64,000 nucleotides of DNA from an uncultured Methylomirabilota bacterium (GCA_963705305.1 OY970067.1:1792001-1856000); one strand, 5' to 3'; counted from the stretch's first letter, positions 28,577 to 50,312 are shown. The notes: generated from the sequence alone by a model not told the origin. Numbers and translations are program-made.

Positions 28577-28643
28577 CGTAAAGATACACGGAAGATCCTG
28601 AGTGCCCTAGGGCTTCGCGTCCCGTTCCGCGGGCGGGTGGCCC

Positions 28644-29840: not shown

Positions 29841-30140
29841 CTTACCTCCGTTCGATGTCTCTTGTCAAAGCGGCTCCTGGAGGGGGAGGGAGGAGCTCAA
29901 GGAATCGCACTAAGGCTCCGACGGTCCGCAGGGGAAGCCGCCGGCGCGCGTGCCCACGTCGCCGGGGAAAGCCTGGATTTCGACAGTATTTCCATCAGCC
30001 TCCAATTGATCCGCGCGTGCGAATCGCCCTCATTAATTCGCCCCATACGATGGCCGCACACCGCGTCGCACCGGACAGTGCCCCCTCGCGGCCGATGGTC
30101 TCTCGAACACGCGGACCTCCCACCCTCTTTGCATGCCATT

Positions 30141-31622: not shown

Positions 31623-31657
31623 GTCTCACCTCCATCCTCAGATTGTGTGGCTCTAAG

Positions 31658-31679
31658 ATGCAACAATATATCATTACAT
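31658..31679. promoter_or_regulatory. Putative Zur box
   Basis: AT-rich imperfect palindrome ATGCAACAATATATCATTACAT (16/22 symmetric) between the divergent porin and znuA. Confidence 0.55.
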
Positions 31680-31834
31680 TATGCTTGCTTCAAGACTCTT
31701 GTCATGCGATAAGGTGGGCGAGTCAACTGGGTCGTTTGTATGCGCTCCCTCGTCTGCTGTGGGCACGGCGGGGCAGCGCCCCCCGGGGCTGTTACCAGGA
31801 ACGTCCGACGGGGCGTTCTCAGAGGAGAAAAGGC

Positions 31835-33528: not shown

Positions 33529-33544
33529 GGAGGTCGACAGGACC

Positions 33545-34372
33545 GTGCTGAGCTATGACTTCATGCAGAATGCCTTCGCGGCGGCGACCATCGTCGCGGT
33601 CGTCTCCGGCCTGGTCGGGTACTTCCTCGTCCTGCGTGGCCAGACCTTCGCCGGGCACGCGCTGGGCCATGTCGGCTTTACGGGCGCCACCGGTGCGGTG
33701 CTCCTCGGCGTCACGCCCCTCTGGGGGCTGGTCCTCATGACGGTGGCGGCCGGCCTCGGCATGGGGATGCTGGGCGAGCGGCTCGCCCAGCGCGACGTCG
33801 CGATCGGCATCGTCCTCGCGTTCTCCCTGGGTCTCGGCCTGCTGTTCCTGCACTTCTACACCGCCTTCGCCACGCAGGCGACCGCCCTGTTGTTCGGCAA
33901 CGTGCTCGCGGTGGATGTCCGCACCGTGTGGCTCCTCCTGGTGCTCGGCGTGCTCAGCGTGGGCGCGCTCGCGGTCATCGCGCGCCCGCTCCTGTTCGCC
34001 AGCCTGCAGCCGGAACTGGCCGAGGCCAAGGGGGTCTCCCTCCGGCTCTACTCCGTCCTGTTCCTGGCCATCGTGGCGGTGGCGACCGCCGAGTGCGCGC
34101 AGATCGTCGGCGTGCTCCTGGTCTTCGCCCTGATGGTAGGCCCGGCCGCGGCCGCCCAGCGCCTGACGACCGGCGTCGGCTGGGGGCTCCTGCTCGCCGC
34201 CGGCCTCGCCCTGTCGGAAGCGTGGGCAGGGATCACCTTGGCGTTTTACACCGACTGGCCCAGCAGTTTCTGGATCACCGCCCTGAGCGCAGGCGTGTAC
34301 CTCGTTGCGACTTTGCCGCGGGTTGGACGGCCCCGCAGCCGCCGCGGCCTGGCTGCGGGCCAGCCTGAGTGA
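33545..34372 (+). CDS. znuB: Zn/Mn ABC transporter permease
   Basis: FAGHALGH, LLFGNVL, VGVLLV. Confidence 0.85.
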   Translation: MLSYDFMQNAFAAATIVAVVSGLVGYFLVLRGQTFAGHALGHVGFTGATGAVLLGVTPLWGLVLMTVAAGLGMGMLGERLAQRDVAIGIVLAFSLGLGLLFLHFYTAFATQATALLFGNVLAVDVRTVWLLLVLGVLSVGALAVIARPLLFASLQPELAEAKGVSLRLYSVLFLAIVAVATAECAQIVGVLLVFALMVGPAAAAQRLTTGVGWGLLLAAGLALSEAWAGITLAFYTDWPSSFWITALSAGVYLVATLPRVGRPRSRRGLAAGQPE

Positions 34373-34771
34373 AGTTGTCTCTCGCCCGGTGGCTGGGTCT
34401 GCCGGGTGCGGGAGCGGTGGGCGCAGGCGCCCGGGTGGCCGGCGTGAGGCTCACCCGTGCAAGGGCGCTGTCGGGGCCGCGGCACGGAGCAGGGCTCCCC
34501 TTCGGCCAGGCATTCGCGACGCTCCTCCGGCACCCCAAACGCATGACCTACTCTGGTCCGCTTAACCCCCCTCCATCGTTCTCCGAACGTGAGCGCGATC
34601 CATGTCTCCATTTGGGGTCTGTCCCCCCGGCCCTCCGGCCGTAGCTCCTCCATCGCTGGCTCTGCGGGTATTTCGCGCCAAATACCCCCCACAAGAAACC
34701 TCCGACCTCCTTCATTTCCCCGACGTTGACGGGGACCCAGCCCCGGATGTTGACGCTTAGCGGTGACATTG

Positions 34772-34801
34772 TTGACATGGGGCGTTTCTCTGGAGTATAA
34801 G
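34772..34801 (+). promoter_or_regulatory. Putative sigma70 promoter
   Basis: TTGACA-N18-TATAAG. Confidence 0.55.
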
Positions 34802-34832
34802 GGGGCAGGCTGAGAAGGCACGTCAACCATGC

Positions 34833-34871
34833 AAACGCCGGAGGCCACAGGTCTCCGGCGTTTCTTTTTTT
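34833..34871 (+). terminator. Intrinsic terminator/attenuator in the leader
   Basis: AAACGCCGGAG..CTCCGGCGTTT hairpin plus T-run. Confidence 0.65.
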
Positions 34872-34883
34872 GGAGGGTCCCCC

Positions 34884-35297
34884 ATGTCAACATCCCGCGC
34901 CCGCTGCCTCTCCTGCCGTATACCGGAGGACGTATACACGCGCCTCGCGGAGCGCGCCCAGGCTGCCGGCGTTACGCTCTCCGCCTCCGTCGCCGCGGCC
35001 CTTTCCAGCCTTGCTGCTCCCCCCGCGCCAGCGATGACGGGCGGGGCCGCCCTGGAGCCCCCGCGACGGCCGCCGGCCGGGCCCCCTCCAGGACCGGACC
35101 TTGCAGCGGTCGTCAGGGTCCTCGTCAAGGCCGCCTTCGGCGAGGAGACCAGGGTCTTCCTGGACGACGACATCCCCTGCCCGGCGTGTGGCCGGACCGG
35201 GGAGCTCTTCTACGCGCAAAGCGAGCCCGGACCCCGGGGCGAGCCGCCATCCCAAGACCTCTGCTGCCTCACGTGCCACTGGCAAGTGGAGCTCTGA
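34884..35297 (+). CDS. Hypothetical protein, RHH-like N-terminus and C-terminal Cys motifs
   Basis: GGAGG RBS; LSCRIPEDVYTRLAERA; CPACG..CLTC. Confidence 0.6.
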   Translation: MSTSRARCLSCRIPEDVYTRLAERAQAAGVTLSASVAAALSSLAAPPAPAMTGGAALEPPRRPPAGPPPGPDLAAVVRVLVKAAFGEETRVFLDDDIPCPACGRTGELFYAQSEPGPRGEPPSQDLCCLTCHWQVEL

Positions 35298-35333
35298 GGC
35301 CGCCCCGTGTCGGCCCTCTGAGGGAAGGAGCCC

Positions 35334-35951
35334 ATGCGCGTCATCCTGTACGGCCGGGTCTCCACCAAGAAGGAGCAGGATCCCGAGACGCAGCTCCAGG
35401 ACCTCCGGCGGTTCGCCGCGGCCCGGGGGTTCGAAGTGGTCGGCGAGTACGTGGACGTGGGGGTCTCCGGGGCCAAGGAGCGCCGGCCCGGCCTCGACCA
35501 GGTCATGGCCCTGGCGCGGGCGCGGCGAGTGGACGCCGTCCTGGTGGCGGCCTTCGACCGCTTCGGCCGGTCCCTCCCCCACCTGGTCCGGGCCCTAGAG
35601 GAGTTCCAGCACCTCGGCGTCGGGTTCGTCTCCCTCCGGGAGCAGCTCGACCTGACCAGCCCGAGCGGGCGCGTGATGTTCGCCGTCATCGCCGCCATGG
35701 CGGAGTTCGAGCGCGAGTTGATCCGGGAGCGGATCCAGGCAGGCCTCCGCCGGGCCCGGCTCCAGGGGACCCGGTCGGGCAAGCCGATTGGCCGACCCCG
35801 CCGGGTGTTCCACCGGGACCAAGTCGCCAGCCTCCGGGAGGCCGGCCAGACCCTCCAGGCCATCGCCCGGACGCTGCAGGTCTCCCGCCGCACGGTGGCC
35901 CGGGTCCTCCACGCGGATCGCGCCCAGGCCGTGGCAAAACCCGCATCCTGA
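35334..35951 (+). CDS. Small serine recombinase (resolvase/invertase) with C-terminal HTH
   Basis: YGRVST, SGAKERRPGL, FDRFGRS, AEFERELIRER, GRPRR. Confidence 0.93.
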   Translation: MRVILYGRVSTKKEQDPETQLQDLRRFAAARGFEVVGEYVDVGVSGAKERRPGLDQVMALARARRVDAVLVAAFDRFGRSLPHLVRALEEFQHLGVGFVSLREQLDLTSPSGRVMFAVIAAMAEFERELIRERIQAGLRRARLQGTRSGKPIGRPRRVFHRDQVASLREAGQTLQAIARTLQVSRRTVARVLHADRAQAVAKPAS

Positions 35952-36260
35952 CTTTTGCCCAGGCGAGCAAGGAGCAGTTTGTTGGCCGGCTAGGTCGCCC
36001 TCGTCCCAACGTCCTAGGCCTGCAAGATCGTATGGTGGGTCGGGTTCGCTCGCCTCCGCAGTTCGCCCGCTCCCCCCGCTCCCTGTTCCTCGTTGCAGGA
36101 GGGTTCTCCTCTTCGCACACCCGAGACCGGCCCGCCAGGTTCGCCCAGGCTCTCCCATCTCGCCACGGCCCTGCCTGGACTACCCACTTCAAACTCTAGG
36201 CCAAGACCCTCTATGTCCTGTATTCGTAGCTCCCCGTGTCACCGCCCCCCGTGTTACTGC

Positions 36261-36477
36261 CCAACTAGCCGTTCACCAAAGGTGTTGACGCGCCAGGATA
36301 GTAAACGTGCTACTCCGGGAAAGTATGCAATCATTACCGTGAGCTCCGGCAACCTCCCCCTCGGCTGGAACGCTGCATAAGAATTCTTCCGAAGGTACCG
36401 ATTCCCCTTCTGGCAAGTAAATCGGTCAGTTGTCGACCGATGATGGGCCGGTATCAACACCCTTGGTGAACGGCTAG
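36261..36477. mobile_element. MITE with 24-bp inverted repeats
   Basis: CTAGCCGTTCACCAAAGGTGTTGA (36265-36288) versus 36454-36477, 23/24 match; flanking direct repeat GTTACTGC at 36253-36260 and 36478-36485. Confidence 0.75.
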
Positions 36478-36583
36478 GTTACTGCAACGGGGCGCGATTC
36501 TGATTGACACCGCGTAAGCCCTTCGCTACGCTCCCGTCAACGATTTTCTCGCCTTTCTTCCCCTAAACTAGGCGCTGACACCC

Positions 36584-37231
36584 ATGAACAAATTCCTAAA
36601 AGACGAACATTGCGAAGCATCGGAGATTCCCGCACTCAAGCCGGTCTTGCAAGGCTGGCTCGAAGCTCAACGGGATTACGCGAAGATGCTCAGGGGTGTT
36701 GATTACTCTTGCCACTACGGTGAGCGACCTTGTATAGGTTTTCTCGCACAAGGCGCTTGGCGCTCAGGCGGGGTAGCGTTAGAAGAGTGGCGCACCGAAA
36801 AGGGTCCCAAGGCCAAACGCCGTCAGGGACGATGCGACCTTTGGATTTTCCGCCATGATAGGTATGAGTTTCATATCGAGGCGAAACACATGTGGCAACC
36901 TGCCACAGTCAAACCCAAGAAGCAACTTAGTTCCATTGAGGCCGCCCTCTCGGATGCAACCAGGGACGCAGCCTCGCTCACCTGCGCCCGCAAAATACAA
37001 CTCGGCATTCTTTTCCTTGCGCCATATTACACACCCACCAAGCAAGCTGGCATGGCAGCACACATTGCAAGCTGGCTCGAAGGTATCTATTCCATACCAC
37101 ATTCCGCCATTGCTTGGGCTTTCCGCAATAGGAAGGGATTAAGCATCAGCAGGGACGAGGAGGAGATCGTCCCCGGACTTGTTCTCATCGCGCGCACAAC
37201 AAAACGACCGAAACGCTTAACCCCCCGATGA
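36584..37231 (+). CDS. Hypothetical PD-(D/E)XK-like nuclease
   Basis: ALEEW..GRCDLWI..HIEAK motif; visibly lower GC. Confidence 0.55.
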   Translation: MNKFLKDEHCEASEIPALKPVLQGWLEAQRDYAKMLRGVDYSCHYGERPCIGFLAQGAWRSGGVALEEWRTEKGPKAKRRQGRCDLWIFRHDRYEFHIEAKHMWQPATVKPKKQLSSIEAALSDATRDAASLTCARKIQLGILFLAPYYTPTKQAGMAAHIASWLEGIYSIPHSAIAWAFRNRKGLSISRDEEEIVPGLVLIARTTKRPKRLTPR

Positions 37232-37274
37232 AGCCGACTCGCTCCACCTGCGGCTTATCGGCAAGGCGTTGACC
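37215..37274 (+). other. attC-like integron cassette recombination site
   Basis: R'' GCTTAAC, arms CCGATGAAGCCG/CGGCTTATCGG with one extrahelical G, R' GTTGACC. Confidence 0.6.
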
Positions 37275-37314
37275 TTCAATCTCTGGGGTGGTTGCGAACA
37301 GTTGGAGGTGCCTT

Positions 37315-38724
37315 ATGGCCGACGACTGGCGGGAGACACTGCTTGGCGCGACGCTTGAAATCGTTTTGCCTACATTGTCTTTCATAAGAGGGGGCTCTGC
37401 TGGCTTTCGCGGGAGCGGACACATAACGTGGGGGATGGATTCAGGAATCCGCGTTATTGCGCACACCGACGGGGCAAACGTCTTGAAGAAAGATATTCTT
37501 CGGGCCGGTGCGGCTCTCGGGCATCTTCTTCCCCATGGGAAATACATATCTGCTTCTGGTCGTACGGAAGATGGATGGGATGTCTCAACTCATCCTGAGT
37601 GGCCGGTTGGTTACTCCATCGGAATAAGCTCACCTCTGGTTCTCTGGGATTTCAAGACTGACGGCCTGGCCCTGACTCGCGAAACCATCCCCCGGGAGCA
37701 CCCTCGGCTGGTTCGAGCGCTTCTTGGCCCCTCGCCAAAAGAGTGGCCCAGGATGACCCACACCGAAATCCATAATGATGGTGAGACATCCTCGGCGTCC
37801 CACCGTGATTGCCTACTGGTGGACTTTAGTTTTGGCAGCCTTTACGCTCGTCAGCGCACGGATAGGTGGTATGAGGTGCAAGTCGAGATCACCGGGACCT
37901 CGCCGCGCTCCGAGGCGCTTGAAATAATTGTGGCTGTCGCCCACGCCTTTGGTTTCGTGCTTGGCCGCCGACAATTCCTGCTGGGGTTTGAAGATTTCGT
38001 GCCAGGTCGAGAGACGCGTCGCTTGTTCGTTGCCGATCGGGAGCCGACCAATGGCTCGATTGCCACGCCTCTTGGGACGAGTTCTGCGTATTTGGCTGAG
38101 GTCGAGAATCTTCTTGGGCGAGCCATAGACTTCTTCCTCACCAAGCAAGGTGAGCGAGTGGCAAAGCACCTTTGGCTCTGTTGGGATGCAGCAGACAATG
38201 CGTTCCCTACTCGACTTGCGGTGGCCAGCATTTGCTTGGAAGGCCTCATCTCGCTCGTTCAACATCAGTCCGAAACAAACAAAGGGAATGAGGTCGGGGG
38301 TGATAGTAGTGACAGCATGGAGGCAGATCTCAAGGCATTGAAGGAATTGTTGAAAACCGCTGAAGACGCAAAGACTCTTACCCCAGAGTTCATTAAACGG
38401 CTTCGAGGTGCGGTTGCGGCATTCAGGAGGGGACGACCATCAGATGTGCTTTGGGACTGGCAACGCAAGGGGCTCTTGGGGGTGACCACAGAAGATATTG
38501 ATGCGTGGAAGAAGACTCGGCACCCAGCGGCACACGGGGCTTTGGTGGCGCCACCGGAAGACAAACAACAACTACAGGACCTGATATCTCGATTCTACCG
38601 GGAAGTCAACTTGATTAACCGGGTAGTCCTTCAGTTGATGGGCTATCGGGGATTGTACGTCGACTATGGCTCCCCAGGCTGGCAAGAGAAAGAGTTCCCG
38701 GCGGCTTTGCCAGTATCCTTATGA
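37315..38724 (+). CDS. ApeA-like HEPN-domain protein (candidate defence RNase)
   Basis: GGAGG RBS; beta-rich N-terminus; ASICLEGL and C-terminal R-HPAA-H-G. Confidence 0.55.
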   Translation: MADDWRETLLGATLEIVLPTLSFIRGGSAGFRGSGHITWGMDSGIRVIAHTDGANVLKKDILRAGAALGHLLPHGKYISASGRTEDGWDVSTHPEWPVGYSIGISSPLVLWDFKTDGLALTRETIPREHPRLVRALLGPSPKEWPRMTHTEIHNDGETSSASHRDCLLVDFSFGSLYARQRTDRWYEVQVEITGTSPRSEALEIIVAVAHAFGFVLGRRQFLLGFEDFVPGRETRRLFVADREPTNGSIATPLGTSSAYLAEVENLLGRAIDFFLTKQGERVAKHLWLCWDAADNAFPTRLAVASICLEGLISLVQHQSETNKGNEVGGDSSDSMEADLKALKELLKTAEDAKTLTPEFIKRLRGAVAAFRRGRPSDVLWDWQRKGLLGVTTEDIDAWKKTRHPAAHGALVAPPEDKQQLQDLISRFYREVNLINRVVLQLMGYRGLYVDYGSPGWQEKEFPAALPVSL

Positions 38725-38751
38725 AGGTATGCGTTGAGAGGTTGCGGAAGC

Positions 38752-40409
38752 TGTCAACAAGAATGAGACACTCCGAGTCTCAGTTTAGTGTACAACGGCC
38801 AACCCCAGCTCCGTCGCATTCGCGGGTGCGGAGGGTGAGACCTCCCCATCCAGGGTCCGCCCGGCCAGCGCGCTGCACCACCCCGTCGGGCGCGCCACGC
38901 GCTCGCCGGGCTCCACGGCGCCCAGGGCTTCGTCATGCTCGTCCAGCGTCCGCGGCTTGTTGATCCACACCGCCTGGGGGAGGGCCGGTGGGGTGGGCAG
39001 CCCTCGGACGAACCGCTCCGGGGTGGCTGCGAAGGCCTGCCGCAGGGCTGCCTCCCGCTCGGCGAGGCGCGTCGCGGCCAGGCCGTAATGGACATCGTGC
39101 GGGGTCAGCCAGCCCAAGGCACTGTGATGGTGCATGGTGTTGTACCAGAGGAAGAAGTCGAGCAGGAAGCTCCGCGCGTCCTGGAGCGACCCGAATCGGT
39201 CCGGGAACTCCGGGTGGTACTTCAGGGTTTTGAACTGGCTCTCCGAGAACGGGTTGTCGTTGGAGACGTGCGGCCGATTGTGCGTCTTGCTCACCCCGAG
39301 GTCGGCGAGCAAGAGGGCCACGGACCTGCTGATCATCGCGGAGCCGCGATCCGCGTGGATCGTCAGCTCGCCTTGCGCGATGCCTTGCCGGGCGCAGGTC
39401 TGTTCGATCAGGCGCTGGGCCAAGGTCGCCGACTCCCGGAGCGCCGCCAGCCAGCCCACCACGTACCGGGAGAAGACGTCCAGAATGACGTACAGGTAGA
39501 AGGCGGTCCACTTCGCCGGCCCCTTCAGCGTGGTGATGTCCCAGCTCCAGAGCTGGTTGGGCCCCGTGGCCAACAGTTCCGGCGCCGCGGCCCGGGGATG
39601 CCGCAACTGCCGCCGGCGCTCGTGGACTTGGGCGTTCGCCTTCAGCACCCGGTACATCGTGCGGATCGAGCAGAGATACTTCCCCTCGTCGAGGAGGGTG
39701 GCGTACACCTCGGCTGGCGCCAAGTCGGCAAACCGGTCGTCATTCAGCACAGCCAGGATCTGCTGGCGTTCCTCCGGCGGCAAGGCGCGGGGCGCCCGCC
39801 GGGGTCTTGCCGGACCACGGGGCTTGGGCTGGTGCCAGCGGTAGTACGTGGCCCGCGGGACGGCCAGCGCCTGGCAGACCGGGGCCACGCCCAGGATGAC
39901 GCTGTGTTCCGTGATGAGCGGCATCAGGGCTTCTCGCCGGTTCGTGGGAGCGGGGTCCCCAGGAGCTCCGCCACTTTTTTTTTGGAGTTCCACCAACGCC
40001 TCGGCCCGCTCGGCTCGGGCGGTCTGGCGGCTCACCTCCCGCTCCAGCGTGGCCACCTTGGCGGCCAGGGGGTTCTTGGCCTTCGGGGCCGGTCCCCGCT
40101 GCTTCGGGGTGAGGCCCGCCAGTTCCCCCCGCGCCCGCTGCGCCCGCCAGGTCGTCAAGTGCGAGGAGTACAACCCCTCCCGGCGCAGCAAGGCCCCGAT
40201 CGCCCCGGGCGCCGTGCACGTGTCCGCCTCCCGGAGGATCCTGCGCTTGTACTCAGCCGGGAACCGCCGCCGGCTGGCCTTGGCCACCACCTCGACCTCG
40301 TGCACGCCTGCTCTCGGAACCGCCACATCATTGAAGGCACCCATCGCCCATTTCCTCCCCGCCCTCTACTCTAAACTCCGAAGGGGGGAGTGTCTCATTC
40401 ATATTGGCA
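38752..40409 (-). mobile_element. IS3-family insertion sequence
   Basis: Imperfect TIRs TGTCAACAAGAATGAGACACTCC / TGCCAATATGAATGAGACACTCC; no clear TSD. Confidence 0.88.
38785..40344 (-). CDS. IS3 transposase, OrfA and OrfB fused in frame
   Basis: RRRFPAEYK, LLRREGLYSS, WSWDIT, HADRGS, DNPFSESQFKTLKY; A9 at the frameshift site. Confidence 0.9.
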   Translation of the reverse strand: MGAFNDVAVPRAGVHEVEVVAKASRRRFPAEYKRRILREADTCTAPGAIGALLRREGLYSSHLTTWRAQRARGELAGLTPKQRGPAPKAKNPLAAKVATLEREVSRQTARAERAEALVELQKKSGGAPGDPAPTNRREALMPLITEHSVILGVAPVCQALAVPRATYYRWHQPKPRGPARPRRAPRALPPEERQQILAVLNDDRFADLAPAEVYATLLDEGKYLCSIRTMYRVLKANAQVHERRRQLRHPRAAAPELLATGPNQLWSWDITTLKGPAKWTAFYLYVILDVFSRYVVGWLAALRESATLAQRLIEQTCARQGIAQGELTIHADRGSAMISRSVALLLADLGVSKTHNRPHVSNDNPFSESQFKTLKYHPEFPDRFGSLQDARSFLLDFFLWYNTMHHHSALGWLTPHDVHYGLAATRLAEREAALRQAFAATPERFVRGLPTPPALPQAVWINKPRTLDEHDEALGAVEPGERVARPTGWCSALAGRTLDGEVSPSAPANATELGLAVVH

Positions 40410-40554
40410 CAGAGGGTGCGCCTTGATCGGCCCTTAGGGCTGTGCGGATATGGCCGTAGTGTTGTCTCTCCTCACCTCTCAAGAAGTGACGCTCTTTCCT
40501 TCCAGTGCCCAGATCCGCCCTTTGCGGGGAGCCGTGCGGGACCCGAACTCTGCA

Positions 40555-40686
40555 CCCCCGCCAGCTAATCGTATCGTGCCCGCCAGGACGGGCCCTGCAC
40601 CTCCCGCTTGCTGCCAGCCCCGCAGCCATGAATGCGGGCGCGACTCGGGTGGGCTATTGGCCTGCGAGGTTAGTCGGAGATTAAGG
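40555..40686 (-). mobile_element. Diverged copy of the IS1380-related MITE
   Basis: Reverse complement begins CCTTAATCTCCGACTAACCTCGCAGG and aligns with 46744 onward for about 80 bp; far end degenerate and approximate. Confidence 0.65.
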
Positions 40687-40933
40687 CTCAGTCTTTCCCC
40701 TTGACACGCCCGACCCGTGAGGCGTAGTTTGATTTATGAGCCTCCCGGCTTCACCCTCGCTTTGCGGGAGCGCTCGCCCACACCGTTGCTTAACCGCGTA
40801 GAATGGGCCACACGGCTGGCCCTGAGTGGTTTTCACCAATTCCAGTCACCCGTCAGAGCTACCAGGGCATCCGTCTAGTTTCCCGCCGAGCCGAGAGAAC
40901 TAGTCTCCGCTTGAGACATGAGGGTGTCGCACC

Positions 40934-42598
40934 ATGGCCTACTATATCGAATTGAGACATGTCGGGTTGGGCAGGTATCGCCGTATCACTGGACCTGATC
41001 GGCTTACGGCTGAGTCGAGGGCTCAAATCATACAGGCTGCGTGGGACCGTCAATGGCAACGAGTCCTTGACGCAGACGAGAAGCACGAGGCTCGGGAGCG
41101 GGCGGTACAGGACCGTCAGGACAAGAAAGAGCTTGCGGCAGAGAGGACGGAAGAGGCGCGGGAGGTTCTGAGGGAGGTGGAGGAAATCCTCACCCACGCC
41201 TTGACGGTGGATGATCGCATCAACTGGGAGGCCATAAAGGACCGGGCGAAGTTCTCGAAAGCCAAGCCCAATCCCCCCGCCTCTCTCCCAGTTCCAACGG
41301 AACCCCAGCGGGAAGACGCACAGTTTCAACCTGACCTCTCCATTCTTGATAAGCTTCTGCCGTCCCATCGCGCCCGCAAGGAGCAAGAGGCCAGGAAGGC
41401 CTTCTTTGAGACCCAACATGCATGGAAGAAAGAGCTGGCAAGGGTCACACAAGAGAACGCAAAGGCAAAGGAAGCTTTTGAGCGGGCAAGCATAGAATGG
41501 GAGAAAGAGCGAGACGCCTTCACGGCAGCGCAAGCGAAACAGCATGAGCAGACCGACGCGCACCGCAAGGCCTACGAGAGTGGCGACCCGAGGGCCATTC
41601 AGGACTATTGCGAGTTGGTCCTCTCACGCTCACAATATCCAGACTGGATCACCCCCGCCGTCGAGGCAGAGTACAATTCAAACACCAAGACCTTGATCGT
41701 TGATTACGAGCTTCCAAGCATTGAGTCCCTGCCTCGGTTGAAGGAGGTGCGCTACATACAGAGTCGGGATGAGATCGAAGAAGTGCAGATTCCCGAGAGT
41801 ACAGCGACGAAGCTTTACGATAGCCTCATCTACCAGATAACTCTCCGCTCTGTCCATGAACTCTTTGAGGCAGACACGATAGGGGCGCTTGATTCGATTG
41901 CGTTCAATGGCTTTGTGGACTCCATTGACAAGGGGACAGGCCAGAACATCCGCCCGTGCATCCTCTCCCTCCATGTGCAGAAGTCGGAGTTCCTCAACGT
42001 CACCCTAAGCCAGGTTGAGCCCAAGGCGTGCTTCAAGAATATGAAAGGGGTGGGCAGCTCGAAGCTTCACAGCTTGACGCCTATCGCCCCCATTCTCCAG
42101 ATGGACCGCACAGACAAGCGTTTCGTTGAGGCGCGCTCCGTTGAGGGCACCCTGGACGAGGCCACAAATCTAGCCGCGATAGATTGGGAGGACTTTGAGC
42201 ATCTCATCCGGGAACTGTTCGAGGAGGAGTTCACCAGCTCCGGCGGAGAAGTGAAGATCACACAAGCCAGCAGAGACGGAGGAGTTGACGCGGTGGCGTT
42301 CGATCCCGACCCGATCCGTGGGGGCAAGATCGTCATTCAGGCCAAGCGCTACACCAACACCGTTGGCGTCTCAGCCGTGCGGGACCTGTACGGAACCGTG
42401 ATGAATGAGGGGGCCACAAAAGGCATTCTCGTTACCACGTCCGATTATGGCCCGGATGCGTATTCTTTCGCCAAAGGGAAACCCCTCACACTTCTCAACG
42501 GAGCCAATCTTCTCCACCTTCTGGAGAAGCACGGACACCGTGCGCGTATTGACCTTCAGGAGGCCAAGAAGTCCGGCCATCCCACATCACCAGATTGA
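40934..42598 (+). CDS. Mrr-family restriction endonuclease with long coiled-coil N-terminus
   Basis: WEDFEHLIRELF, SRDGGVDA, IQAKRY, VGVSAVRDLYG, KGILVTTS. Confidence 0.9.
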   Translation: MAYYIELRHVGLGRYRRITGPDRLTAESRAQIIQAAWDRQWQRVLDADEKHEARERAVQDRQDKKELAAERTEEAREVLREVEEILTHALTVDDRINWEAIKDRAKFSKAKPNPPASLPVPTEPQREDAQFQPDLSILDKLLPSHRARKEQEARKAFFETQHAWKKELARVTQENAKAKEAFERASIEWEKERDAFTAAQAKQHEQTDAHRKAYESGDPRAIQDYCELVLSRSQYPDWITPAVEAEYNSNTKTLIVDYELPSIESLPRLKEVRYIQSRDEIEEVQIPESTATKLYDSLIYQITLRSVHELFEADTIGALDSIAFNGFVDSIDKGTGQNIRPCILSLHVQKSEFLNVTLSQVEPKACFKNMKGVGSSKLHSLTPIAPILQMDRTDKRFVEARSVEGTLDEATNLAAIDWEDFEHLIRELFEEEFTSSGGEVKITQASRDGGVDAVAFDPDPIRGGKIVIQAKRYTNTVGVSAVRDLYGTVMNEGATKGILVTTSDYGPDAYSFAKGKPLTLLNGANLLHLLEKHGHRARIDLQEAKKSGHPTSPD

Positions 42599-43088
42599 GA
42601 TCTACTCCATCCAACGCCCGGATTCGTCCTTGATGGGGAGCCGGGCAGGACTCGAACTCGGGTCTTGGGCAATACCCCCTTGCTGACCTCTGCCAAAAGG
42701 TCTCGAACTTCAGATCTTCCCAGCTTCTTGGCCGGAGTGTCAAAATCACCTGATTGTGCCCTTGGCTTTCTCCCCCCTGTGCCGGTCGTTCTTGACATCA
42801 CCGACGGGCAAGCGGTAGCGTTCCCCCAATCTCCCCTACGGTCAGCATGAACTTCCCGCGTAGGCGCACGCTGCAACTCTTGGATCGACTGCGGCGGACC
42901 AGATTCACAAGGGGGAGGATAGGGAGACTTGATGGGGTGTGGATACAATTGGAGGGTCCTCGGGCCCTACCGTTCAACAGCTGCGGGGCGAAGGCTCCAC
43001 TGCTTGCCCCCTCAGATCGGCAAAGAGGATCCTGCTGAGGTCAGCGCCAGGCTCAACCGTATCATCAAGACGGTGGAGGAGTGGGCTG

Positions 43089-44243
43089 ATGCCTGACAGT
43101 TACGGTTCCACGCTCTATCCAAAGGAGTTCGTGGAGAGGTTGCCGAGGCTGAGGCAGCACGAGACGCGGCCATTACTGATGCTCCTCCGCGGCCAACACG
43201 AGAACGCGGCCGGGGAGATCGAGCGCATTGAGCGGTGGTTCCGAGAACTCGACGGTCCGGCAGATCGGAAGGCCGTGCTTGCCGGGAACCTGCGGGGTCT
43301 GAGGGCGATCCAGTTCTGGAGCGGGCTCTACGAGTTGTTGACCTCTCGGATCTTCGTCGAACGGGGATGGAGGGCGCGCTACGAGGTGCCGATCGCGGGT
43401 CTCACGCCGGACTTCACCGTCCCCTACACTGGCGGCGACCACTTCGTTGCCGAAGTGCTGACCGCATTCGAGGAGCGGGAGTATAGCCGTGAGGACGACG
43501 ATCTGCACTATGTGGCCAATGCCCTCGACACGATTCGCCGCCGAACCGGCGTCTTTATCGAAGAAGTCCACTTGCCCAAGACTCGGCCCAGTCTGAAGCG
43601 CTTGCGACAGAGTGTAGCCGCTTGGTTGGACACGTGCCCCGCCGATGGAGCCAGGCTCTCCTTGTCTGACGACCAGGTCGGGCTCTCGATAGTGCTGTCG
43701 TCAGTCAGCACGCGATCGGAGGACTCGCCGATCGTCGAGGGAATCGTCGGGCCAGGTGGCAAGATTTCGACTTACGCCACGATCCGAGACGCACTGCGCG
43801 GCAAGTCGGCGAAGTACGGTTCGGTCAAGGCAACCGGAGTACCCCTGGTGATTTTCGTCTGGGAGGGCGCCTGGACGCACGTTACCCACACCTCGCTAGA
43901 GTGGGCGCTGTGGGGCCGAGATCGCCTCAGATTCTCTCGGACGCCAAAGGGGATTGGTGACGCCGTGTGGGATCGGGAACCCGGCGGACTCTTCGGCTTC
44001 GGCCCGAATGGCAAGAGTGATCCTCAGCACACGAGAATCAGTGCCGTAATGTATTGCGTGAGGGTGTGCAATAAGGGGAATATCTCTGCTGGACTTCGGC
44101 TGTACCATCACCCACACGCGGCCAATCCTTTGCCCCTCAAGGTCTTCGAAGGGATAGCGCAATGCGTTCCCGTCGAGGTCACGCCGAACCGTGTGTCGGC
44201 TCAGTGGGATCGGCAGCCCGGAACCAGCATGTTGCTGCGGTAG
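43089..44243 (+). CDS. Hypothetical PD-(D/E)XK-like protein
   Basis: GGAGGAG RBS; YELL..RYE..TPDF..AEV; later K..KY and HHPHA. Confidence 0.55.
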   Translation: MPDSYGSTLYPKEFVERLPRLRQHETRPLLMLLRGQHENAAGEIERIERWFRELDGPADRKAVLAGNLRGLRAIQFWSGLYELLTSRIFVERGWRARYEVPIAGLTPDFTVPYTGGDHFVAEVLTAFEEREYSREDDDLHYVANALDTIRRRTGVFIEEVHLPKTRPSLKRLRQSVAAWLDTCPADGARLSLSDDQVGLSIVLSSVSTRSEDSPIVEGIVGPGGKISTYATIRDALRGKSAKYGSVKATGVPLVIFVWEGAWTHVTHTSLEWALWGRDRLRFSRTPKGIGDAVWDREPGGLFGFGPNGKSDPQHTRISAVMYCVRVCNKGNISAGLRLYHHPHAANPLPLKVFEGIAQCVPVEVTPNRVSAQWDRQPGTSMLLR

Positions 44244-44405
44244 TGGGCATCGGTGGTATCGACTCGTCGGAGGTGGGCTAGCTCCTCGCTGAACCGCTGG
44301 TGAGGGCGTCAGGTAACAAGCAAACGCCAACGCGAGCACAGACGCCAAGTCCTGCCCCGAGTTTGAAAGTGGCTAACTGCGAAGCAGCTGGGAGGAGCGC
44401 GTGCG

Positions 44406-45095
44406 ATGAGTGAGGAACACACGGCAGATCAAGTGAAGGCAGAGCACTTGAGCCAACTTGGATTGAGGCTCGGCCCAGTCTTCTCTGAGCTGCAGAGCGA
44501 TGTCGCGTGGCTACAGGTGAAGTGGACCGAGTATCGGGAACTGTACGGAACCTCTCCTGAACGTGTGGGCCTTCTTAACGAGGCCGCCGGTCTCTTCTTC
44601 AAAATCCTCCAGAACACTCTATGGGAGGACGCACTCTTGCATCTGTGCCGCCTCACCGATCCATCAGTGATGAGGGGCAGGCAAAACCTGTCCATCCAGG
44701 CACTACCGGAACTGTGTGAGGATCCCAATCTGCGAGGTGAGGTCGCGGAACTCGTGTCCCGGGCGCTGACAGCGTGTTCCTTTGCGCGGGACTGGCGAAA
44801 TCGACACATCGGCCACAGGGATCGCACCCTAGCTCTCCAGCCCACCAGCAAGCCGTTGACCCCTGGAAGCAGAGCCGATGTATCGGCTGCCATTGCCTCT
44901 GTTCATGAAGTGCTGAACCACATCAGCGAGCGGCTATTGGGTTCGAAATTGGCCGACACGGTCATTGTCCCACCGACTGGTGCTCTCGCTCTGCTTTACC
45001 TGCTCCGTGACGGGCGCGAAGCACAAGCCGCAAAGAAAGAGCGAATCCGTTCCGGGCGGTACTCCGCAGAGGACCTTCAAGATCGCCCGATCTGA
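44406..45095 (+). CDS. AbiU2-like HEPN protein
   Basis: LLHLCRLTDP, NLSI, WRNRHIGHRD. Confidence 0.65.
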   Translation: MSEEHTADQVKAEHLSQLGLRLGPVFSELQSDVAWLQVKWTEYRELYGTSPERVGLLNEAAGLFFKILQNTLWEDALLHLCRLTDPSVMRGRQNLSIQALPELCEDPNLRGEVAELVSRALTACSFARDWRNRHIGHRDRTLALQPTSKPLTPGSRADVSAAIASVHEVLNHISERLLGSKLADTVIVPPTGALALLYLLRDGREAQAAKKERIRSGRYSAEDLQDRPI

Positions 45096-45113
45096 GGTGC
45101 TGCCCGATTCTTC

Positions 45114-45142
45114 TTGACGGTGGGAATAAGCGCGACTATATT
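45114..45142 (+). promoter_or_regulatory. Putative sigma70 promoter
   Basis: TTGACG-N17-TATATT. Confidence 0.6.
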
Positions 45143-45164
45143 ATTTGCGATCGCCCATGGAATC

Positions 45165-45836
45165 ATGGATGTTCATATGCTCACGCGAACAGAAGTGCTG
45201 ACCCTGACTGGGCTGACCGGAAAGGCGCTGTCCTGGTACCGGGAGCTGGGGCTGATCCCCAAACCTGTCATCATCCGCCGAGGACGCGGAACGCAAGTCC
45301 TATTCCCCCCAGAGGTGGTTCGCGTGATCAGTGGCGTCCAGGGACTCCAGAAGCTCGGCTATTCTCTGCGCGCGATCCGCGACCGGTTCCAGGACCCCGA
45401 TGTCTATGCCCGGGTACTGGAGCCTACCCCCGAGGAAAAGGCGAGGGCGATCAGCCCGGTATTGGTCCCGGAGAATGAAAGCGCCGGGGAGGGCAGGGTA
45501 GTGCCGGTCAGTGGGATCGAGGTGGAGGTCAAGCGCGGCGAACGGGCATGGGGCCTGGACCGCCTGTACGAGGCTGTCGAGCGCGAGATCGGCAAAGCCA
45601 GCCAGGTCCACGTCGTTCTCCGCCGAGAAGGTGCGCGGGTATTTGCGAAGGTGACGGCCGTCCGCGGGGTAGCGCGCCAGCCACTCACCCGTCCCGCGCC
45701 CCGGCGAGTCGGTACCCCACGAACCATTCGCCGAACCAAAGCCGCCCACCGAGCGCGCGAGGATACGTCTTCGGAGGGTGAGGACCTGCCTGCGGTGATC
45801 CCTCCGAATTCCAGCCGCGCCCCGACCTCCACGTGA
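45165..45836 (+). CDS. MerR-like HTH protein (excisionase/RDF or regulator candidate)
   Basis: LTRTEVLTLTGLTGKALSWYRELGLIPKP..LGYSLRAIR. Confidence 0.65.
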   Translation: MDVHMLTRTEVLTLTGLTGKALSWYRELGLIPKPVIIRRGRGTQVLFPPEVVRVISGVQGLQKLGYSLRAIRDRFQDPDVYARVLEPTPEEKARAISPVLVPENESAGEGRVVPVSGIEVEVKRGERAWGLDRLYEAVEREIGKASQVHVVLRREGARVFAKVTAVRGVARQPLTRPAPRRVGTPRTIRRTKAAHRAREDTSSEGEDLPAVIPPNSSRAPTST

Positions 45837-45856
45837 GTGTCGGGGCGTTCTTTTTT
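45818..45856 (+). terminator. Intrinsic terminator-like hairpin
   Basis: CGCCCCGAC..GTCGGGGCG followed by TTCTTTTTT. Confidence 0.6.
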
Positions 45857-45892
45857 CACAGGAGCGCAGAGGCTCCAGCGCCCTAACGCGGG

Positions 45893-46135
45893 ATGCAGAT
45901 GAACTCCCGAGGAGACTTCGCCACCAGCGACATTCACCTCGCCAGCTACCTGCTCGCCACCGATCACCCGCTGCGCCAGCTCGACGGTGGCCCCGGCCAT
46001 CGTGTCTTCATCTTCGGCGACGTTGCGGCCGATGAGGTGACCGCCTTCTACGCGGGGGTCAAGGTGGACGCGCGGAAGCTGCTCGGGGCGATGCGGGACC
46101 TGAAAGGCCTCCTCGCCCAAGGGCTACGGCGATGA
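45893..46135 (+). CDS. DUF5659-like small phage/ICE protein
   Basis: FATSDIHLASYLLA motif; stop overlaps the next start. Confidence 0.55.
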   Translation: MQMNSRGDFATSDIHLASYLLATDHPLRQLDGGPGHRVFIFGDVAADEVTAFYAGVKVDARKLLGAMRDLKGLLAQGLRR

Positions 46136-47918
46136 CGAGCCGGCCGTCGCAGGCCTCGAAGCCCGTCTGGCACAACCTTGAGGCGGAAGTCGGGGTCCTA
46201 GGGGCCTGCCTGCAGGATGACGAGGCGGCGCGGCAAGCGACTGCCATGCTCTCCCCATCGGACTTATACCGAGATATCCACGGGGAGATCTTTGGGGTGA
46301 TCCAATCCCTCGTCGCGCGAGAGTCCATCGTAAACCTCGTCACCGTCGGCGAGGATCTGGAACGGCGCGGCCGCCTCCAGGCCGTCGGTGGCTCCGCCTA
46401 CCTGGCCGGATTGGTGGACGCGGTCCCGACCTCAGCCCCCCTGGTTCATTACGTTCGCATCGTGCGACGGTACGCGCTCCTGCGGAAATTCTACCAGGTC
46501 TGCCGGGAGGCCGCGAGTGAGGCCCGAACGGGTGCGGATCCTGCTGAAGTGCTCGTGAAACATCTGAGGGTCTTGGAGGAGCTTCGGGCCTCCGTCACCC
46601 CCGAGCCCGAGAGAGATTTGACAATAGGCGCAGATGCGTTCCTCACACCGCCTCCGGAGCTGCCGTGGGACATCGAAAAGGTTCGAGTCCATGACGACCA
46701 CGGCTGGACTGGCGGGGCCCCGAAGTCAATGAAAGGCCTGCTCCCTTAATCTCCGGATAACGTCGCAGGGCAGTAGCGCACCCGTGTGGCGCCCGCAATC
46801 ATGGCCGCGGGGCTGGCTGCCCGCATCGGACCTGGCTGCACCCGATGGGTGGCGCCCCGCAGAGGCGATGGGCACGTTAGCCGGAGATTTGGGTGCTCAG
46901 CCTGGAGGAGGCGCGGGCGTGTGCGACCGGGACGCTTTTCCTCGGGCACTTTCCCACGCAGAAACAGCGGGTCCTGTATGTCAGCGAGGAGGACCGCCAG
47001 GACCGCCTTCACCGTCGGTACCACGCAGCCGTGAAAGGCCGCCCGCCAGACGAGGTGCCCGGGCCAGAGGCCCTGCGCTTCCTCATCAAGGCGGGGGTGA
47101 GACTGGACCTGGAGTCCGGCCGGCAGCTCCTGCGCCGCCACATCGAACTCCACCGGCCGGACGTGGTCTTTCTGGAGCATTTCGATCGCTTGCACGCGGT
47201 GAACCCGAACAAACCCGAGGAGATCAAGCCGCTGCTGAACTTTCTCGACGATCTGCACCGTGAGTTCGGCTGCGTGTTCCGGGTGCAAAAGCACAACCGC
47301 AAGGAGGCGGCCGGACAGAGCCGGCGGAAGGGCGAAATGCTCGCCGGGACCATCGCACAGCACGGGTGGGGGGAGTCGTCGATTTACCTGACCCTGGTGC
47401 GGCGTGGGATCGCCCTTGTCGAGGTGGAGGCCAAAGACGGAGACACCGCTGCGCGGTTTCGCGTGCAGTATCAGGATGGTCGCATGGTCTATGGCGGAGA
47501 AGCGAACAGCGGGGATCGCATGGGGAGGTCCGGGGCGAATCAGGGACGGGTGCTGCGGGCTGTGGCTGACCAGCCTGGAGCCTCTGTTGAGGAACTCGCA
47601 AAGGCGGTGGACATGAGCGACAAGACGATCCGTCGGCACCTAAAGCGGCTCGAAGAGGCGGGCGAAGTGGTTGGACACCAGGAGAGTTCCAAGCAGCCGC
47701 GCCGTTACTGGCCGAACTCCGCAGAGGCACAGGAGAATATGCTTGGACAGCAGCCGGATTGTCCAAGCGACCGAACAGATGCCCAGCTTGAGGGCAGGTG
47801 GGTGGACACGCATGGAAGCACCCCTGAAGGGTGTTCCATGCGTCTGTCCAACCTCCCAGGACGAGGTCATGGGGGCCAGAGCGGCGGCGAGGTCGCGTCT
47901 CGCCAGCATGAGAGCTGA
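46132..47918 (+). pseudogene. DnaB-N + AAA_25/RepA-like helicase + HTH, broken by a MITE
   Basis: HNLEAEVGVLGA..GGSAYLAGL; Walker A region GAPKSMK; removing 46744-46898 restores KGLL-SLEE in frame. Confidence 0.85.
46744..46893 (+). mobile_element. 150-bp MITE with IS1380-type ends
   Basis: Ends CCTTAATCTCCGGATAAC / GTTAGCCGGAGATTTGGG; 5-bp TSD TGCTC at 46739-46743 and 46894-46898. Confidence 0.9.
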
Positions 47919-48298
47919 GGTTCTAGCGTGGCCCGCTGTACCCAGCCGTTCCGAATGGTACGAGGCCCAGGATGCTAGGGGGACGGAACAGACAAGAAAG
48001 TGGGGCCGCGCGGCAGGTGCGGCGGAGGCAGATCCCTCCCGCCGATGCCTCCATCCCTCCCGTCCTCGATGACTTCCTGCGTGTAGTCGGCCGGCTCGCG
48101 GGGGAGGCCGTCCTCCGCAAGTACCGAACGGCGGGCGGGCGGTCCGAGCAGGATAGGCAGAGGAGCCCGAAGGGGGACTGCATCCGGGCATCGACTCAGG
48201 AAGGGAACCAGCTCGACCCTCCCATGCCCTCCAGGTCGGCAAATGATTGATTGCCTAGATCCAGATTTTTCGAAATCATTACCAGGGGGCTTGATGGA

Positions 48299-48316
48299 TT
48301 ATTACTTAAGTAATAA
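48299..48316. promoter_or_regulatory. Perfect 18-bp palindromic operator candidate
   Basis: TTATTACTTAAGTAATAA upstream of the RHH-LSR pair. Confidence 0.6.
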
Positions 48317-48340
48317 CTTGTTGATGGAGGTAATATCACC

Positions 48341-48502
48341 ATGGCCATGAAACGGACGTCGCTCCATCTGGATGACCGGGACTTGCGGGCCCTGGACCGG
48401 ATCGCCGAGGCGGAGACCAAGGCGACGGGGATCCGGGTGTCCGCGTCCGGGATCGTCCGGCGGCTCATCAAACAATTCCTCCGCGCGCAGGGCCCGCGGT
48501 AG
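48341..48502 (+). CDS. RHH/CopG microprotein (53 aa), not in the ORF track
   Basis: GGAGG RBS; MAMKRTSLHLDDRDLRALDRIAEAETKATGIRVSASGIVRRLIKQFLRAQGPR. Confidence 0.75.
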   Translation: MAMKRTSLHLDDRDLRALDRIAEAETKATGIRVSASGIVRRLIKQFLRAQGPR

Positions 48503-48542
48503 CGCGGGGCGCGAAGGAGATCTGGTCTCTCGGGAGGTAGGC

Positions 48543-50312
48543 ATGAGATACACCCGAACACCCGCCCAGCCGGACCCCGGCCCCCCCGGGCGCCCCTTCG
48601 CGGGGCTCTGCTTCGCCATCTACGGCCGGAAGTCCACCCTCGACGCCCGGCACGAGGACCACAAGTCCGTGACCCGCCAGGTCGAGCAGGCGACGCGCTA
48701 TGTCGAGGCCCGGGGCGGGGAGGCCCTCCCGGGCCACGTGTACCTCGACGACGAGGTCAGCGGGGCGGAGTTCCGGGCGCGGGCGGGCCTCCTGCGGTTC
48801 CTTGACACCCTGAAAAATGGGAGGGCCTTCAACGCGGTCGTCACGTCCGAGGAGTCCCGCTTCGGCCGGGAGCAGCTCGAAACGGGCTACCTCCTGAAGC
48901 AGATCACTGACGCCGGCGTCCGGGTGTTCTACTACCTCGAAGACCGGGAGGCCCGCCTCGACTCGGCCCTCGACAAGATCATGGCCTCGCTCACGCTCTT
49001 CGGCGCCGAGCTGGAGCGGGAGAAGGCCCGGCAGCGGGCCCGGGATGCCGCCGAGCGGAAGGCCCGCCAGGGCCTCGTCACGGGCGGGGAGCCCTACGGC
49101 TACCAGAATGTCCCCTACCGCGCCGGGCAGGAGGTCCCCCCCGGGGAGCCCCACGACTGCGTGAAGCGTCGGATCCAGCCGGCCGAGGCGGCCATCGTCC
49201 GGGGGATCTTCCGGATGTACGCCGCCGGCTGGGGCATCACCAAGATCGCCAAGACCCTGAACGGCGTCCCGACCTATGCCGCGCAGAGCGCGGAATTCTT
49301 CACCGGCCAGCGGGTGGCCGCCCCCCGGACCGGCTCGTGGGCGCCGACGGCCATCCGGGCTATGCTCCACAGCCCCCTCTACCGCGGGGAGCTCGTCTGG
49401 GGACGGACGACGCACACGGACCGCGACGGCCGGGCCCGGCTCACGGCGCGCCGGCCGGCCCGGGAGTGGCTCCGGCAGCCCGCCCCCGACCTGCAGATCA
49501 TCCCGGACGAGTTGTGGGCCGCCGTCCAGGCCCAGCTCACCCGGCAGGCCGAGAAGTTCGCCCAGCCCGGCGCTGGCCGGGTGGCCGCCCCGGACCTCCG
49601 GCGGGAGGGTCGGTACCTCCTCTCCGGCCTGGCCCAGTGCGGCGTCTGCGGGGGGACCTTCGCCGTGGCGGGGGGCAAGTACCGGCGGTACGGCTGCGCC
49701 CACGCCCTGAAGCGGGGCGTCTGCGACAACCGCCTCTCCCAGCGGGTGGAACTGGTCGAGGAATCCTTCCTCGCCACCCTGGAGCGGGAGGCCCTCCTCA
49801 CCCCCGCGCGGTTCCTGCGGGCGGTCGAGTACGGGGTGGCGCGGGTGCAAGAGGAGCTCGCCGCGCAGCCGGACCGGCGGCCCGCCCTGGAAGAGGAGCG
49901 GGCCACTCTCACCCGGCAAATCGCGCACCTCGTGGCGGCCATCGGCAACGGCCATGGCCCGGCGGCCCTGGTGGCGGAGATCGAGAAGGCCGAAACCCGG
50001 CTCCGGGACATCGAGGGGGAACTCGCCCGCCTGACGGTGCCGCCAGCCCTCGGCGTCCTTGACCTGAAGCGGATCGAGCGGGATGTAGCGCGGGAGCTCG
50101 GCCGCTTTGCCGCCCTCCTCCGTGGCGACGTGCCGCAAGCCCGGCAAGCCCTGAAGCGGCTCCTGGCGGACCGCGTGACGTTCGATCCGGTCGAGCTGGG
50201 AGACGGCACGTGGACGTATGAGTTTCGGGGAGAGTTGACCTACGGGGCGGTCTTACAGGAGGTTGTATCTATGGAAAAAATCCCCCTGGGGACACCATTT
50301 ATATATACGTAA
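48543..50312 (+). CDS. Large serine recombinase (integrase); 3' end spans attR
   Basis: YGRKST, ESRFGR, PYGY, LSGLAQCGVCG..YGC..C zinc ribbon, coiled coil; GGAGG RBS. Confidence 0.94.
   Translation: MRYTRTPAQPDPGPPGRPFAGLCFAIYGRKSTLDARHEDHKSVTRQVEQATRYVEARGGEALPGHVYLDDEVSGAEFRARAGLLRFLDTLKNGRAFNAVVTSEESRFGREQLETGYLLKQITDAGVRVFYYLEDREARLDSALDKIMASLTLFGAELEREKARQRARDAAERKARQGLVTGGEPYGYQNVPYRAGQEVPPGEPHDCVKRRIQPAEAAIVRGIFRMYAAGWGITKIAKTLNGVPTYAAQSAEFFTGQRVAAPRTGSWAPTAIRAMLHSPLYRGELVWGRTTHTDRDGRARLTARRPAREWLRQPAPDLQIIPDELWAAVQAQLTRQAEKFAQPGAGRVAAPDLRREGRYLLSGLAQCGVCGGTFAVAGGKYRRYGCAHALKRGVCDNRLSQRVELVEESFLATLEREALLTPARFLRAVEYGVARVQEELAAQPDRRPALEEERATLTRQIAHLVAAIGNGHGPAALVAEIEKAETRLRDIEGELARLTVPPALGVLDLKRIERDVARELGRFAALLRGDVPQARQALKRLLADRVTFDPVELGDGTWTYEFRGELTYGAVLQEVVSMEKIPLGTPFIYT
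50279..50310 (+). repeat. attR of island 1 / left junction of island 2
   Basis: tRNA 3'-end copy followed by TTTATATATACGT, which recurs at 62063-62075. Confidence 0.9.

Follow-up and report, generated by a model that had tools for sequence, protein, structure and literature searches.

The stretch of DNA analysed here, referred to below as the window, comprises 64,000 nt from an uncultured Methylomirabilota bacterium (GCA_963705305.1 OY970067.1:1792001-1856000), and positions are counted within it. It contains one tRNA gene, for tRNA-Glu(UUC), and, on the same strand, a gene for a large serine recombinase (LSR). In the final codons of the LSR gene, the 19 nt at the 3' end of the tRNA gene recur with one mismatch, forming a direct repeat (AATCCC, then G or C, then CTGGGGACACCA) with a spacing of 21,721 bp. 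The island delimited by the two copies appears to have been placed into the 3' end of the tRNA-Glu gene by its own LSR, so that the attachment site (attP) of the excised circle would lie within the gene of the enzyme that acts on it. The circle form of this integrase would carry a C-terminal tail, ending in Ala-Ala (-AA), that the integrated form lacks; this tail, its conservation and its possible roles are the subject of this report.

An integrase gene overlapping its attachment site

The protein has the architecture of an LSR, i.e., an N-terminal Resolvase domain (PF00239, E 2e-17, residues 25-177) followed by a Recombinase domain (PF07508, E 5e-20, residues 213-334) and a zinc ribbon (Zn_ribbon_recom, PF13408, E 3e-9, residues 359-413) with an inserted coiled coil. 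An R-K-S motif at residues 29-31 sits in nearly invariant alignment columns. As a proxy for the circle form, the tail-bearing homologue P0178 was modelled with AlphaFold2 from a 150-sequence alignment, giving a mean predicted local distance difference test score (pLDDT) of 88.9 and a predicted template modelling score of 0.78. In this model the catalytic, recombinase and zinc-ribbon/coiled-coil domains are folded, with long helices at residues 375-513 followed by a beta-hairpin, and the fold stops near residue 550. Residues 551-574, i.e., the att-encoded linker and the whole tail, have pLDDT values below 50, and the tail of this homologue is predicted to be disordered, with no docking on the fold.

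In the chromosome, the LSR frame crosses the repeat as ..MEKIPLGTP and stops four codons past it, the residues FIYT being encoded by the flank (C-terminus ...MEKIPLGTPFIYT). The att core corresponds to the T-stem and the acceptor 3' strand of the tRNA, and in the integrase frame it encodes the linker ..IPLGTP.. that follows the last folded element of the zinc-ribbon/coiled-coil domain. When the DNA beyond the tRNA gene is read in that same frame it is open and ends in ALAA (Table 1), giving a reconstructed circle form ..VALAA. The first-pass annotation of this DNA had claimed that the integrase gene spans attP and that integration swaps its C-terminus. Its coordinates and strings were all correct, and the claim is borne out by the 19-nt repeat in the final codons and by the open, in-frame tail after the tRNA.

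Integration thus removes, at the level of sequence, an -AA tag from a split gene (..VALAA in the circle, ..FIYT in the chromosome), and the attP concerned lies in the integrase gene, not in a repressor gene. The textbook determinant for ClpX is LAA. The window tail also ends in LAA, an exposed C-terminal Ala-Ala, preferably after a hydrophobic residue, being the ssrA-like feature, and it has the same last four residues, ALAA, as the tag encoded by the transfer-messenger RNA (tmRNA) of the host (ANSELALAA). The host genome encodes clpP-clpX. Random reading frames in the source genome end in AA in 1.5% of cases, in LAA in 0.08% and in ALAA in 0.011%.

Reconstruction of attP by joining its two arms gave a site in which TCCCC and GGGGA adjoin a central CT, with TGTATCT and AGATACA outside them, each separated by a 10-nt spacer. 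The symmetry about CT and the arms that had been proposed earlier were recovered, with 13 of 25 positions mirrored; random window positions had a mean of 6.95 (SD 2.32), and a symmetry of at least 14/25 was found at 0.35% of 100,000 of them. The G/C mismatch in the repeat (28564/50285) is directly 5' of CT, with the G of the tRNA at attL and the C of the element at attR; exchange therefore occurred within the 12 identical bases CTGGGGACACCA. The symmetry, taken by itself, points to CT as the crossover dinucleotide. A crossover anywhere in the 12 bases has the same outcome for the protein, the isoforms diverging after ..GTP. Contigs from the stretch were present in only three metagenome runs, where they cover small parts of it, and none spans 50240-50333.

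Table 1. Positions of the integrase gene, its attachment sites and associated features in the window
Feature	Position	Strand	Remarks
LSR, prophage isoform, 589 aa	48543..50312	+	Open reading frame; Pfam domains; GGGAGG 6 nt before ATG
P arm with att core, within the integrase gene	50264..50297	+	TGTATCT 50264-50270, TCCCC 50281-50285, CT 50286-50287; repeat copy 50279-50297 encodes ..KIPLGTP
Flank-encoded end of the integrated isoform (FIYT and stop)	50298..50312	+	Flank TTTATATATACGT; looks like a P'-type half-site
P' arm and detached 3' end of the integrase gene	28577..28654	+	25 codons and TAA, RKDTRKILSALGLRVPFRGRVALAA; holds half-site AGATACA 28582-28588
Putative crossover dinucleotide CT at attL	28565..28566	+	Dyad centre; attR partner 50286-50287
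tRNA-Glu(UUC), target gene, intact at attL	28499..28576	+	ARAGORN; left att repeat copy at its 3' end (19 nt, 28558-28576)
Integrated island, 21,721 bp	28577..50297		Repeat spacing; Pfam and PHROGs scans
Ribbon-helix-helix open reading frame, 53 aa	48341..48502	+	Pfam RHH_1, E 7e-4; score 19.8 bits (cut-off 20.5)

Conservation of the tail

Close copies of the LSR were absent from 250 other genomes of the phylum (0/250 at E <= 1e-120). In phage and plasmid collections the best identity was about 30% (30% or less for the best phage matches), and a scan of viral contigs with the LSR protein yielded 25 pattern matches and no relative. Loci and proteins compared with the window are designated below by L and P numbers, respectively, and the source genome as G000. 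Ends in -AA were found in 12 of the 119 homologues listed and in 16 of 147 further representatives of 50%-identity clusters, i.e., in 28/266 overall, and AA was the commonest C-terminal dipeptide of the 266, followed by PG (17). With the background in the source genome taken from random frames, as above, or from open reading frames of at least 300 aa (1.9%), this is a roughly 5- to 7-fold excess.

The nearest tail-bearing homologues, P0038 (..PLGTPRKYIGSFQHLELTIPFSGKVAA, i.e., ..IPFSGKVAA) and P0037 (..LVLPFGGIVAA), both align with the tail of the window (..RVPFRGRVALAA). The AA tails are otherwise very diverse, extending 14-27 residues past an invariant Pro, and in lineages that are only 35-40% identical the tail still lacks internal stops and keeps a similar length.

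Two further exact copies of the tRNA-Glu 3' end are present in the same genome, both without a tRNA body. The copy at G000:C1:930797-930822 (+) (L154) is followed by an in-frame remnant of an LSR tail, SIYTPMLSLNRIAKFRGVVAA, which ends ..IAKFRGVVAA and a stop codon. This remnant keeps F-R-G-x-V-A-A, and five of the six residues that it has in common with the window tail differ in codon (TTC/TTT, CGC/CGA, GGG/GGA, GCC/GCG and GCC/GCA); the differences being synonymous, selection would therefore have acted on the peptide and not on the DNA. Upstream of L154, the DNA is similar to the ends of an element of another type, seen at L164 and L167, which come from two further genomes of the genus. The other copy, at C1:1618019-1618044 (-), lies 16 kb from a decayed, frameshifted remnant of the C-terminal part of a related LSR (G000:C1:1601990-1602377 (-); pieces 60-71% identical, ..EVVSMEKIPLE..), and the two together probably represent another island, now dead. 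After the remnant, the 16 nt found next to the attR of the window, CCATTTATATATACGT, occur in inverted orientation.

The two ends can also be seen in one element in two states. Over the 559 residues that end in ..MVSPTG, proteins P0051 and P0054 differ at only two (557 identical), and beyond that point they diverge. P0051, on a 2.7-Mb contig, ends in FEPVS, which is translated tRNA T-arm, and P0054, on a 30-kb contig, ends in LGLLWTPEIKGKARVAA. Judging from these comparisons of sequence, the tail is under selection together with its -AA end, and is not a product of chance.

The overlap of gene and target extends across the family. The LSR stop codon falls on a tRNA gene at 12 of 23 loci in one set of relatives and at 17 of 21 in another. 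The target of these relatives is mostly a tRNA-Glu gene read antisense, and ends of the forms ..SPTGFEPVFWP and ..GIRTRV.. recur because of this; close relatives of the window LSR end ..PLGTP followed by residues from the flank. L014 shares with the window its 19-nt segment of tRNA-Glu, which it uses in the reverse direction. In L063, the C-terminal part of which is 65% identical to that of the window, the core reads ..GTCCCC-AG-CGGG.., compared with ..ATCCCC-CT-GGGG.. in the window, which is consistent with one central dinucleotide being used in either polarity. More distant LSR branches target tRNA-Phe and tRNA-Met. Of 46 LSR genes of more distant relationship, drawn from loci in genomes and metagenomes, 26 have a tRNA gene no more than 150 nt from the stop codon, and none (0/46) ends in -AA. 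Targeting of tRNA genes is routine in this LSR family.

Possible roles of the tail

One reading of these data is that the tail is an ssrA/ClpXP-type C-terminal degron that is detached by integration, to which we would give about an even chance. With attP within the last codons of the recombinase, the excised circle would extend the frame by 25 codons, adding a disordered tail that ends in ALAA; in the chromosome that tail would be separated from the gene, lying untranslated beside the tRNA, and the protein would end in FIYT. The circle-encoded integrase would then be short-lived, limiting recombinase activity after excision or transfer and making integration possible only in a brief window of time, while the prophage-encoded integrase would escape turnover. 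The motif upstream in the tail, described below, may add adaptor binding or a second function.

Several findings weigh against the degron reading. The binomial probability of 28/266 at the 1.9% background, 5e-13, is overstated, the relatives within the family being non-independent. The residue at position -3 of the AA tails is variable (V, R, K, A, I and others), and therefore only -AA is conserved, not (L/V)AA. Six elements had both repeat copies within reach for reconstruction. Three of the rebuilt tails end in -AA, i.e., those of the window, L014 (..AWLRAA) and L002 (..GGPFVAA), and three do not, i.e., those of L004 (..FLVRG), L012 (..LAIVA) and L007 (..VAGAG), the L007 tail having been rebuilt with a weak 15-nt repeat at a distance of 37.6 kb. 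A search of the 50 kb upstream of L001 found no partner repeat of 13 nt or longer. The test suggested in the first-pass annotation, namely whether homologues keep an in-frame tail ending in (L/V)AA, had a largely positive outcome: -AA is the commonest ending, with position -3 variable and half of the reconstructions lacking -AA. Because a detached tail is untranslated while its island is integrated, its decay in old islands might be expected, which we offer as conjecture.

Some -AA forms in chromosomal contexts also count against the degron reading. P0061 is on a 372-kb contig, and L101 (L101:10250-11260) has an intact -AA tail (..RFSGEFDVNRAA) with an intact target tRNA 850 nt downstream, a 14-nt repeat of its att core lying inside the tRNA-like sequence at that distance. 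The -AA tail is therefore not always that of a free circle; the arrangement at L101 looks like that of tandem or neighbour-supplied tails. A last point of this kind is that a motif in the tail (P, K or R, then F, I or L, then any residue and G; or else PF), which was defined post hoc and is present in 14 of the 28 AA tails but in only 9 of 238 other ends, suggests a function beyond that of a minimal tag.

An alternative is that the tail has a job within the recombinase and is not a degradation signal, e.g., by binding, as a short linear motif, to a directionality factor, to a host factor or to the coiled coil of the enzyme itself. Integration, by removing the tail, would then alter activity or directionality, much as in phage Mx8, where integration alters the integrase 3' end and specificity (PMC6070905), and the -AA would be incidental or secondary. 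The pattern hydrophobic-P/K-F-x-G stands 5-10 residues before the end in those 14 tails, it is present in the tails of the window, L154, L072, L101 and L002, and the length of the tail after the invariant Pro is fairly constant. Set against this, the terminal AA is the sole conserved position across tails that otherwise cannot be aligned, and the tail of the modelled homologue is predicted to be disordered and undocked. We regard a working part in this sense as the main alternative, less likely than the degron; the two readings are not mutually exclusive.

The mixed outcome of the reconstructions would also be expected if the overlap were a by-product of compaction, with attP merely lying at the end of the gene, extra residues being tolerated and neither tail having a function. 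In the present family the end of an integrated form is indeed dictated by the tRNA or the flank that its frame runs into, and McMurdie et al. held the variable, divergent C-termini of DsiB, a serine recombinase of Dehalococcoides islands, to be possibly trivial (PMC3146451). A by-product would not be expected to produce the excess of -AA ends over background, the synonymous substitutions between the tails of the window and L154, or an open tail of conserved length in lineages as divergent as those compared above. We regard it as quite improbable.

A further possibility concerns the FIYT end. Rather than untouched host DNA, the right flank might be what is left of the P' arm of a related element that had integrated there before, i.e., the product of sequential integration, with FIYT and its stop codon being a degenerate old tail. 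Tandem arrays could in that case restore -AA to an integrated integrase, and the switch would depend on the neighbour and not simply on the state of integration. The flank, TTTATATATACGT, has ATATAC at the spacing of a P' half-site, attR is as symmetric as attP (13/25), and these 13 nt are found again after the tRNA-Glu fragment at G000:C1:1618019 (L162). The tail of L154 begins ..ATATATAC.., L101 carries its -AA tail with a target tRNA downstream, and tandem islands have been described in Dehalococcoides (PMC3146451).

On the other side, a search for an empty site by the tRNA flank matched 15 of 21 family genomes (G000 included), the DNA after tRNA-Glu was different in all 14 others, and no empty site was identified. 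Half-sites of attB and attP for serine integrases are in any case expected to resemble each other. An older P' arm is, on this evidence, a doubtful but serious account of the flank. A search for an empty site by the right flank was uninformative, the flank gene belonging to a multi-copy family.

Returning to the degron reading, its extension to the family would be as follows. A large and phylogenetically wide group of serine integrases that target the T-arm and acceptor end of tRNA genes (Glu, Phe, Met, Arg and Leu) may carry attP in their own last codons, such that recombination toggles a proteolysis tag; the circle form would be self-limiting, and the prophage form stable and ready for excision. 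We put this forward tentatively, as somewhat less likely than the degron itself. If the tail is a degron, the stability of the integrase would be set by the state of the DNA that it recombines, amounting to a one-gene feedback without a repressor, in which the lifetime of a recombinase is written by the product of its own reaction. Genome annotations and catalogues of integrases in which the prophage copy is accepted as it stands record the wrong C-terminus for these enzymes, which matters for the mining of integrases as genome-engineering tools; naturally self-limiting serine integrases could themselves serve as useful parts.

Related systems and the remainder of the island

Classical phage LSRs such as those of phiC31, Bxb1 and A118/LI have the same Resolvase, Recombinase and zinc ribbon plus coiled coil arrangement, and their att sites are short and dyad-symmetric around a central dinucleotide, as the reconstructed attP would be. 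In those phages attP is outside the gene and integration is into protein-coding or intergenic sites; here, by contrast, attP is inside the integrase gene.

The closest precedent for that overlap is DsiB. McMurdie et al. (2011) described islands in the tmRNA gene of Dehalococcoides in which the 3' end of the serine recombinase gene dsiB always overlaps attL/attP, and proposed that DsiB may be fully functional only when expressed from the circle (PMC3146451). As in the window, the LSR is at the edge of the island, its 3' end lies over the att repeat in the target gene and its stop codon is outside the island; DsiB islands also insert in the T-loop region, and they occur in tandem and are probably mobilisable (PMC3146451). 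The likeness noted here is one of arrangement. The DsiB target is the tmRNA gene and the target here is tRNA-Glu, and DsiB is accompanied by a small serine recombinase, DsiA (PMC3146451). The passages on DsiB in that paper report divergent ends, and in them neither a conserved tail nor an -AA terminus is mentioned (PMC3146451). As to a companion small serine recombinase in the present island, none of the 27 open reading frames scanned (0/27) matched PF00239 at E <= 0.01.

The integration-dependent immunity of mycobacteriophages, for which the original study is reportedly that of Broussard et al. in 2013, is the closest precedent for the tag. There attP lies inside a gene, the C-terminus of the product differs by state, and the ssrA-like -AA tag of the viral form is lost on integration; many of the integrases in these phages also end in -AA (PMC8092301, PMC9934374). 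As those sources describe it, however, it is the repressor gene that is split; the integrases belong to the tyrosine recombinases and retain their tag whether or not the phage is integrated (PMC8092301, PMC9934374). Here, the split gene is that of a serine integrase itself, with no repressor, and degradation is suggested by the sequence. If the degron reading is correct, the logic of integration-dependent immunity would extend from repressors and tyrosine systems to serine integrases.

The integrases of Mx8 (IntP/IntX) and of SSV-type viruses also have attP in the integrase coding sequence, and integration makes a new 3' end (PMC6070905, PMC4383910), which in Mx8 alters activity or specificity (PMC6070905). 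The position of attP in the gene is thus shared with the window, but the enzyme here is a serine recombinase; those of Mx8 and SSV are tyrosine recombinases, for which the accounts describe a larger truncation or a split of the gene and no degradation tag (PMC6070905, PMC4383910). In its remarks on integrase targets, the 2014 Islander paper states that no targeting of tRNA genes by serine integrases was known (PMC4383910); the present finding would document such targeting as common.

The first-pass annotation had known of no description of such a switch in LSRs. That stands in respect of the -AA tail, since we found no description in the literature of an integration-toggled -AA tail on a serine integrase, although TIGER/Islander-type att catalogues and supplements, which were uninspected, may list such pairs. 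It does not stand for the overlap with att, described for DsiB in 2011 (PMC3146451). The finding is therefore not wholly new, both the overlap of LSR and att and the removal of -AA tags by integration being known; it is their combination on a serine integrase that targets a tRNA gene that was not found in print.

Pfam and PHROGs scans revealed no phage structural genes in the island, which for this reason resembles an integrative element that may be mobilisable more than it does a prophage. Its cargo includes a Fur-family regulator, an OprB porin and a ZnuA/ABC/ABC-3 metal-uptake set, together with an insertion sequence (IS) transposase, an Mrr-type nuclease, a HEPN AbiU2 protein, a MerR-type helix-turn-helix (HTH) protein (45114-45836), and genes with DnaB_N and with AAA_25 plus winged HTH domains. 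The ribbon-helix-helix open reading frame (Table 1) stops 40 nt upstream of the integrase start, and L067 has a 44%-identical open reading frame upstream of its LSR; this small protein is a candidate regulator or directionality factor, and the MerR-type protein is another candidate for the latter role. Only this gene (in L067) and the DnaB_N gene (in L080, L055 and L125) recur beside homologous integrases.

The GC content of the island drops to 0.56-0.63 at 36-45 kb. Within this low-GC part lies the IS-type transposase (HTH_Tnp_1 plus rve, 38785-40344, -), and defence-type cargo occupies 40934-45095 (+), i.e., an Mrr_cat nuclease of 554 aa, an open reading frame of 434 aa and the HEPN AbiU2 protein. 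A 47-nt direct repeat (28819-28865 and 34619-34665, 83% identical, 5.8 kb apart) flanks the Fur/OprB/Znu block. To the right of the island, an open reading frame of 905 aa (50476-53193, -) is a member of a multi-copy family, and its 3' part matches at least 10 further places in the same genome at 70-86% DNA identity.

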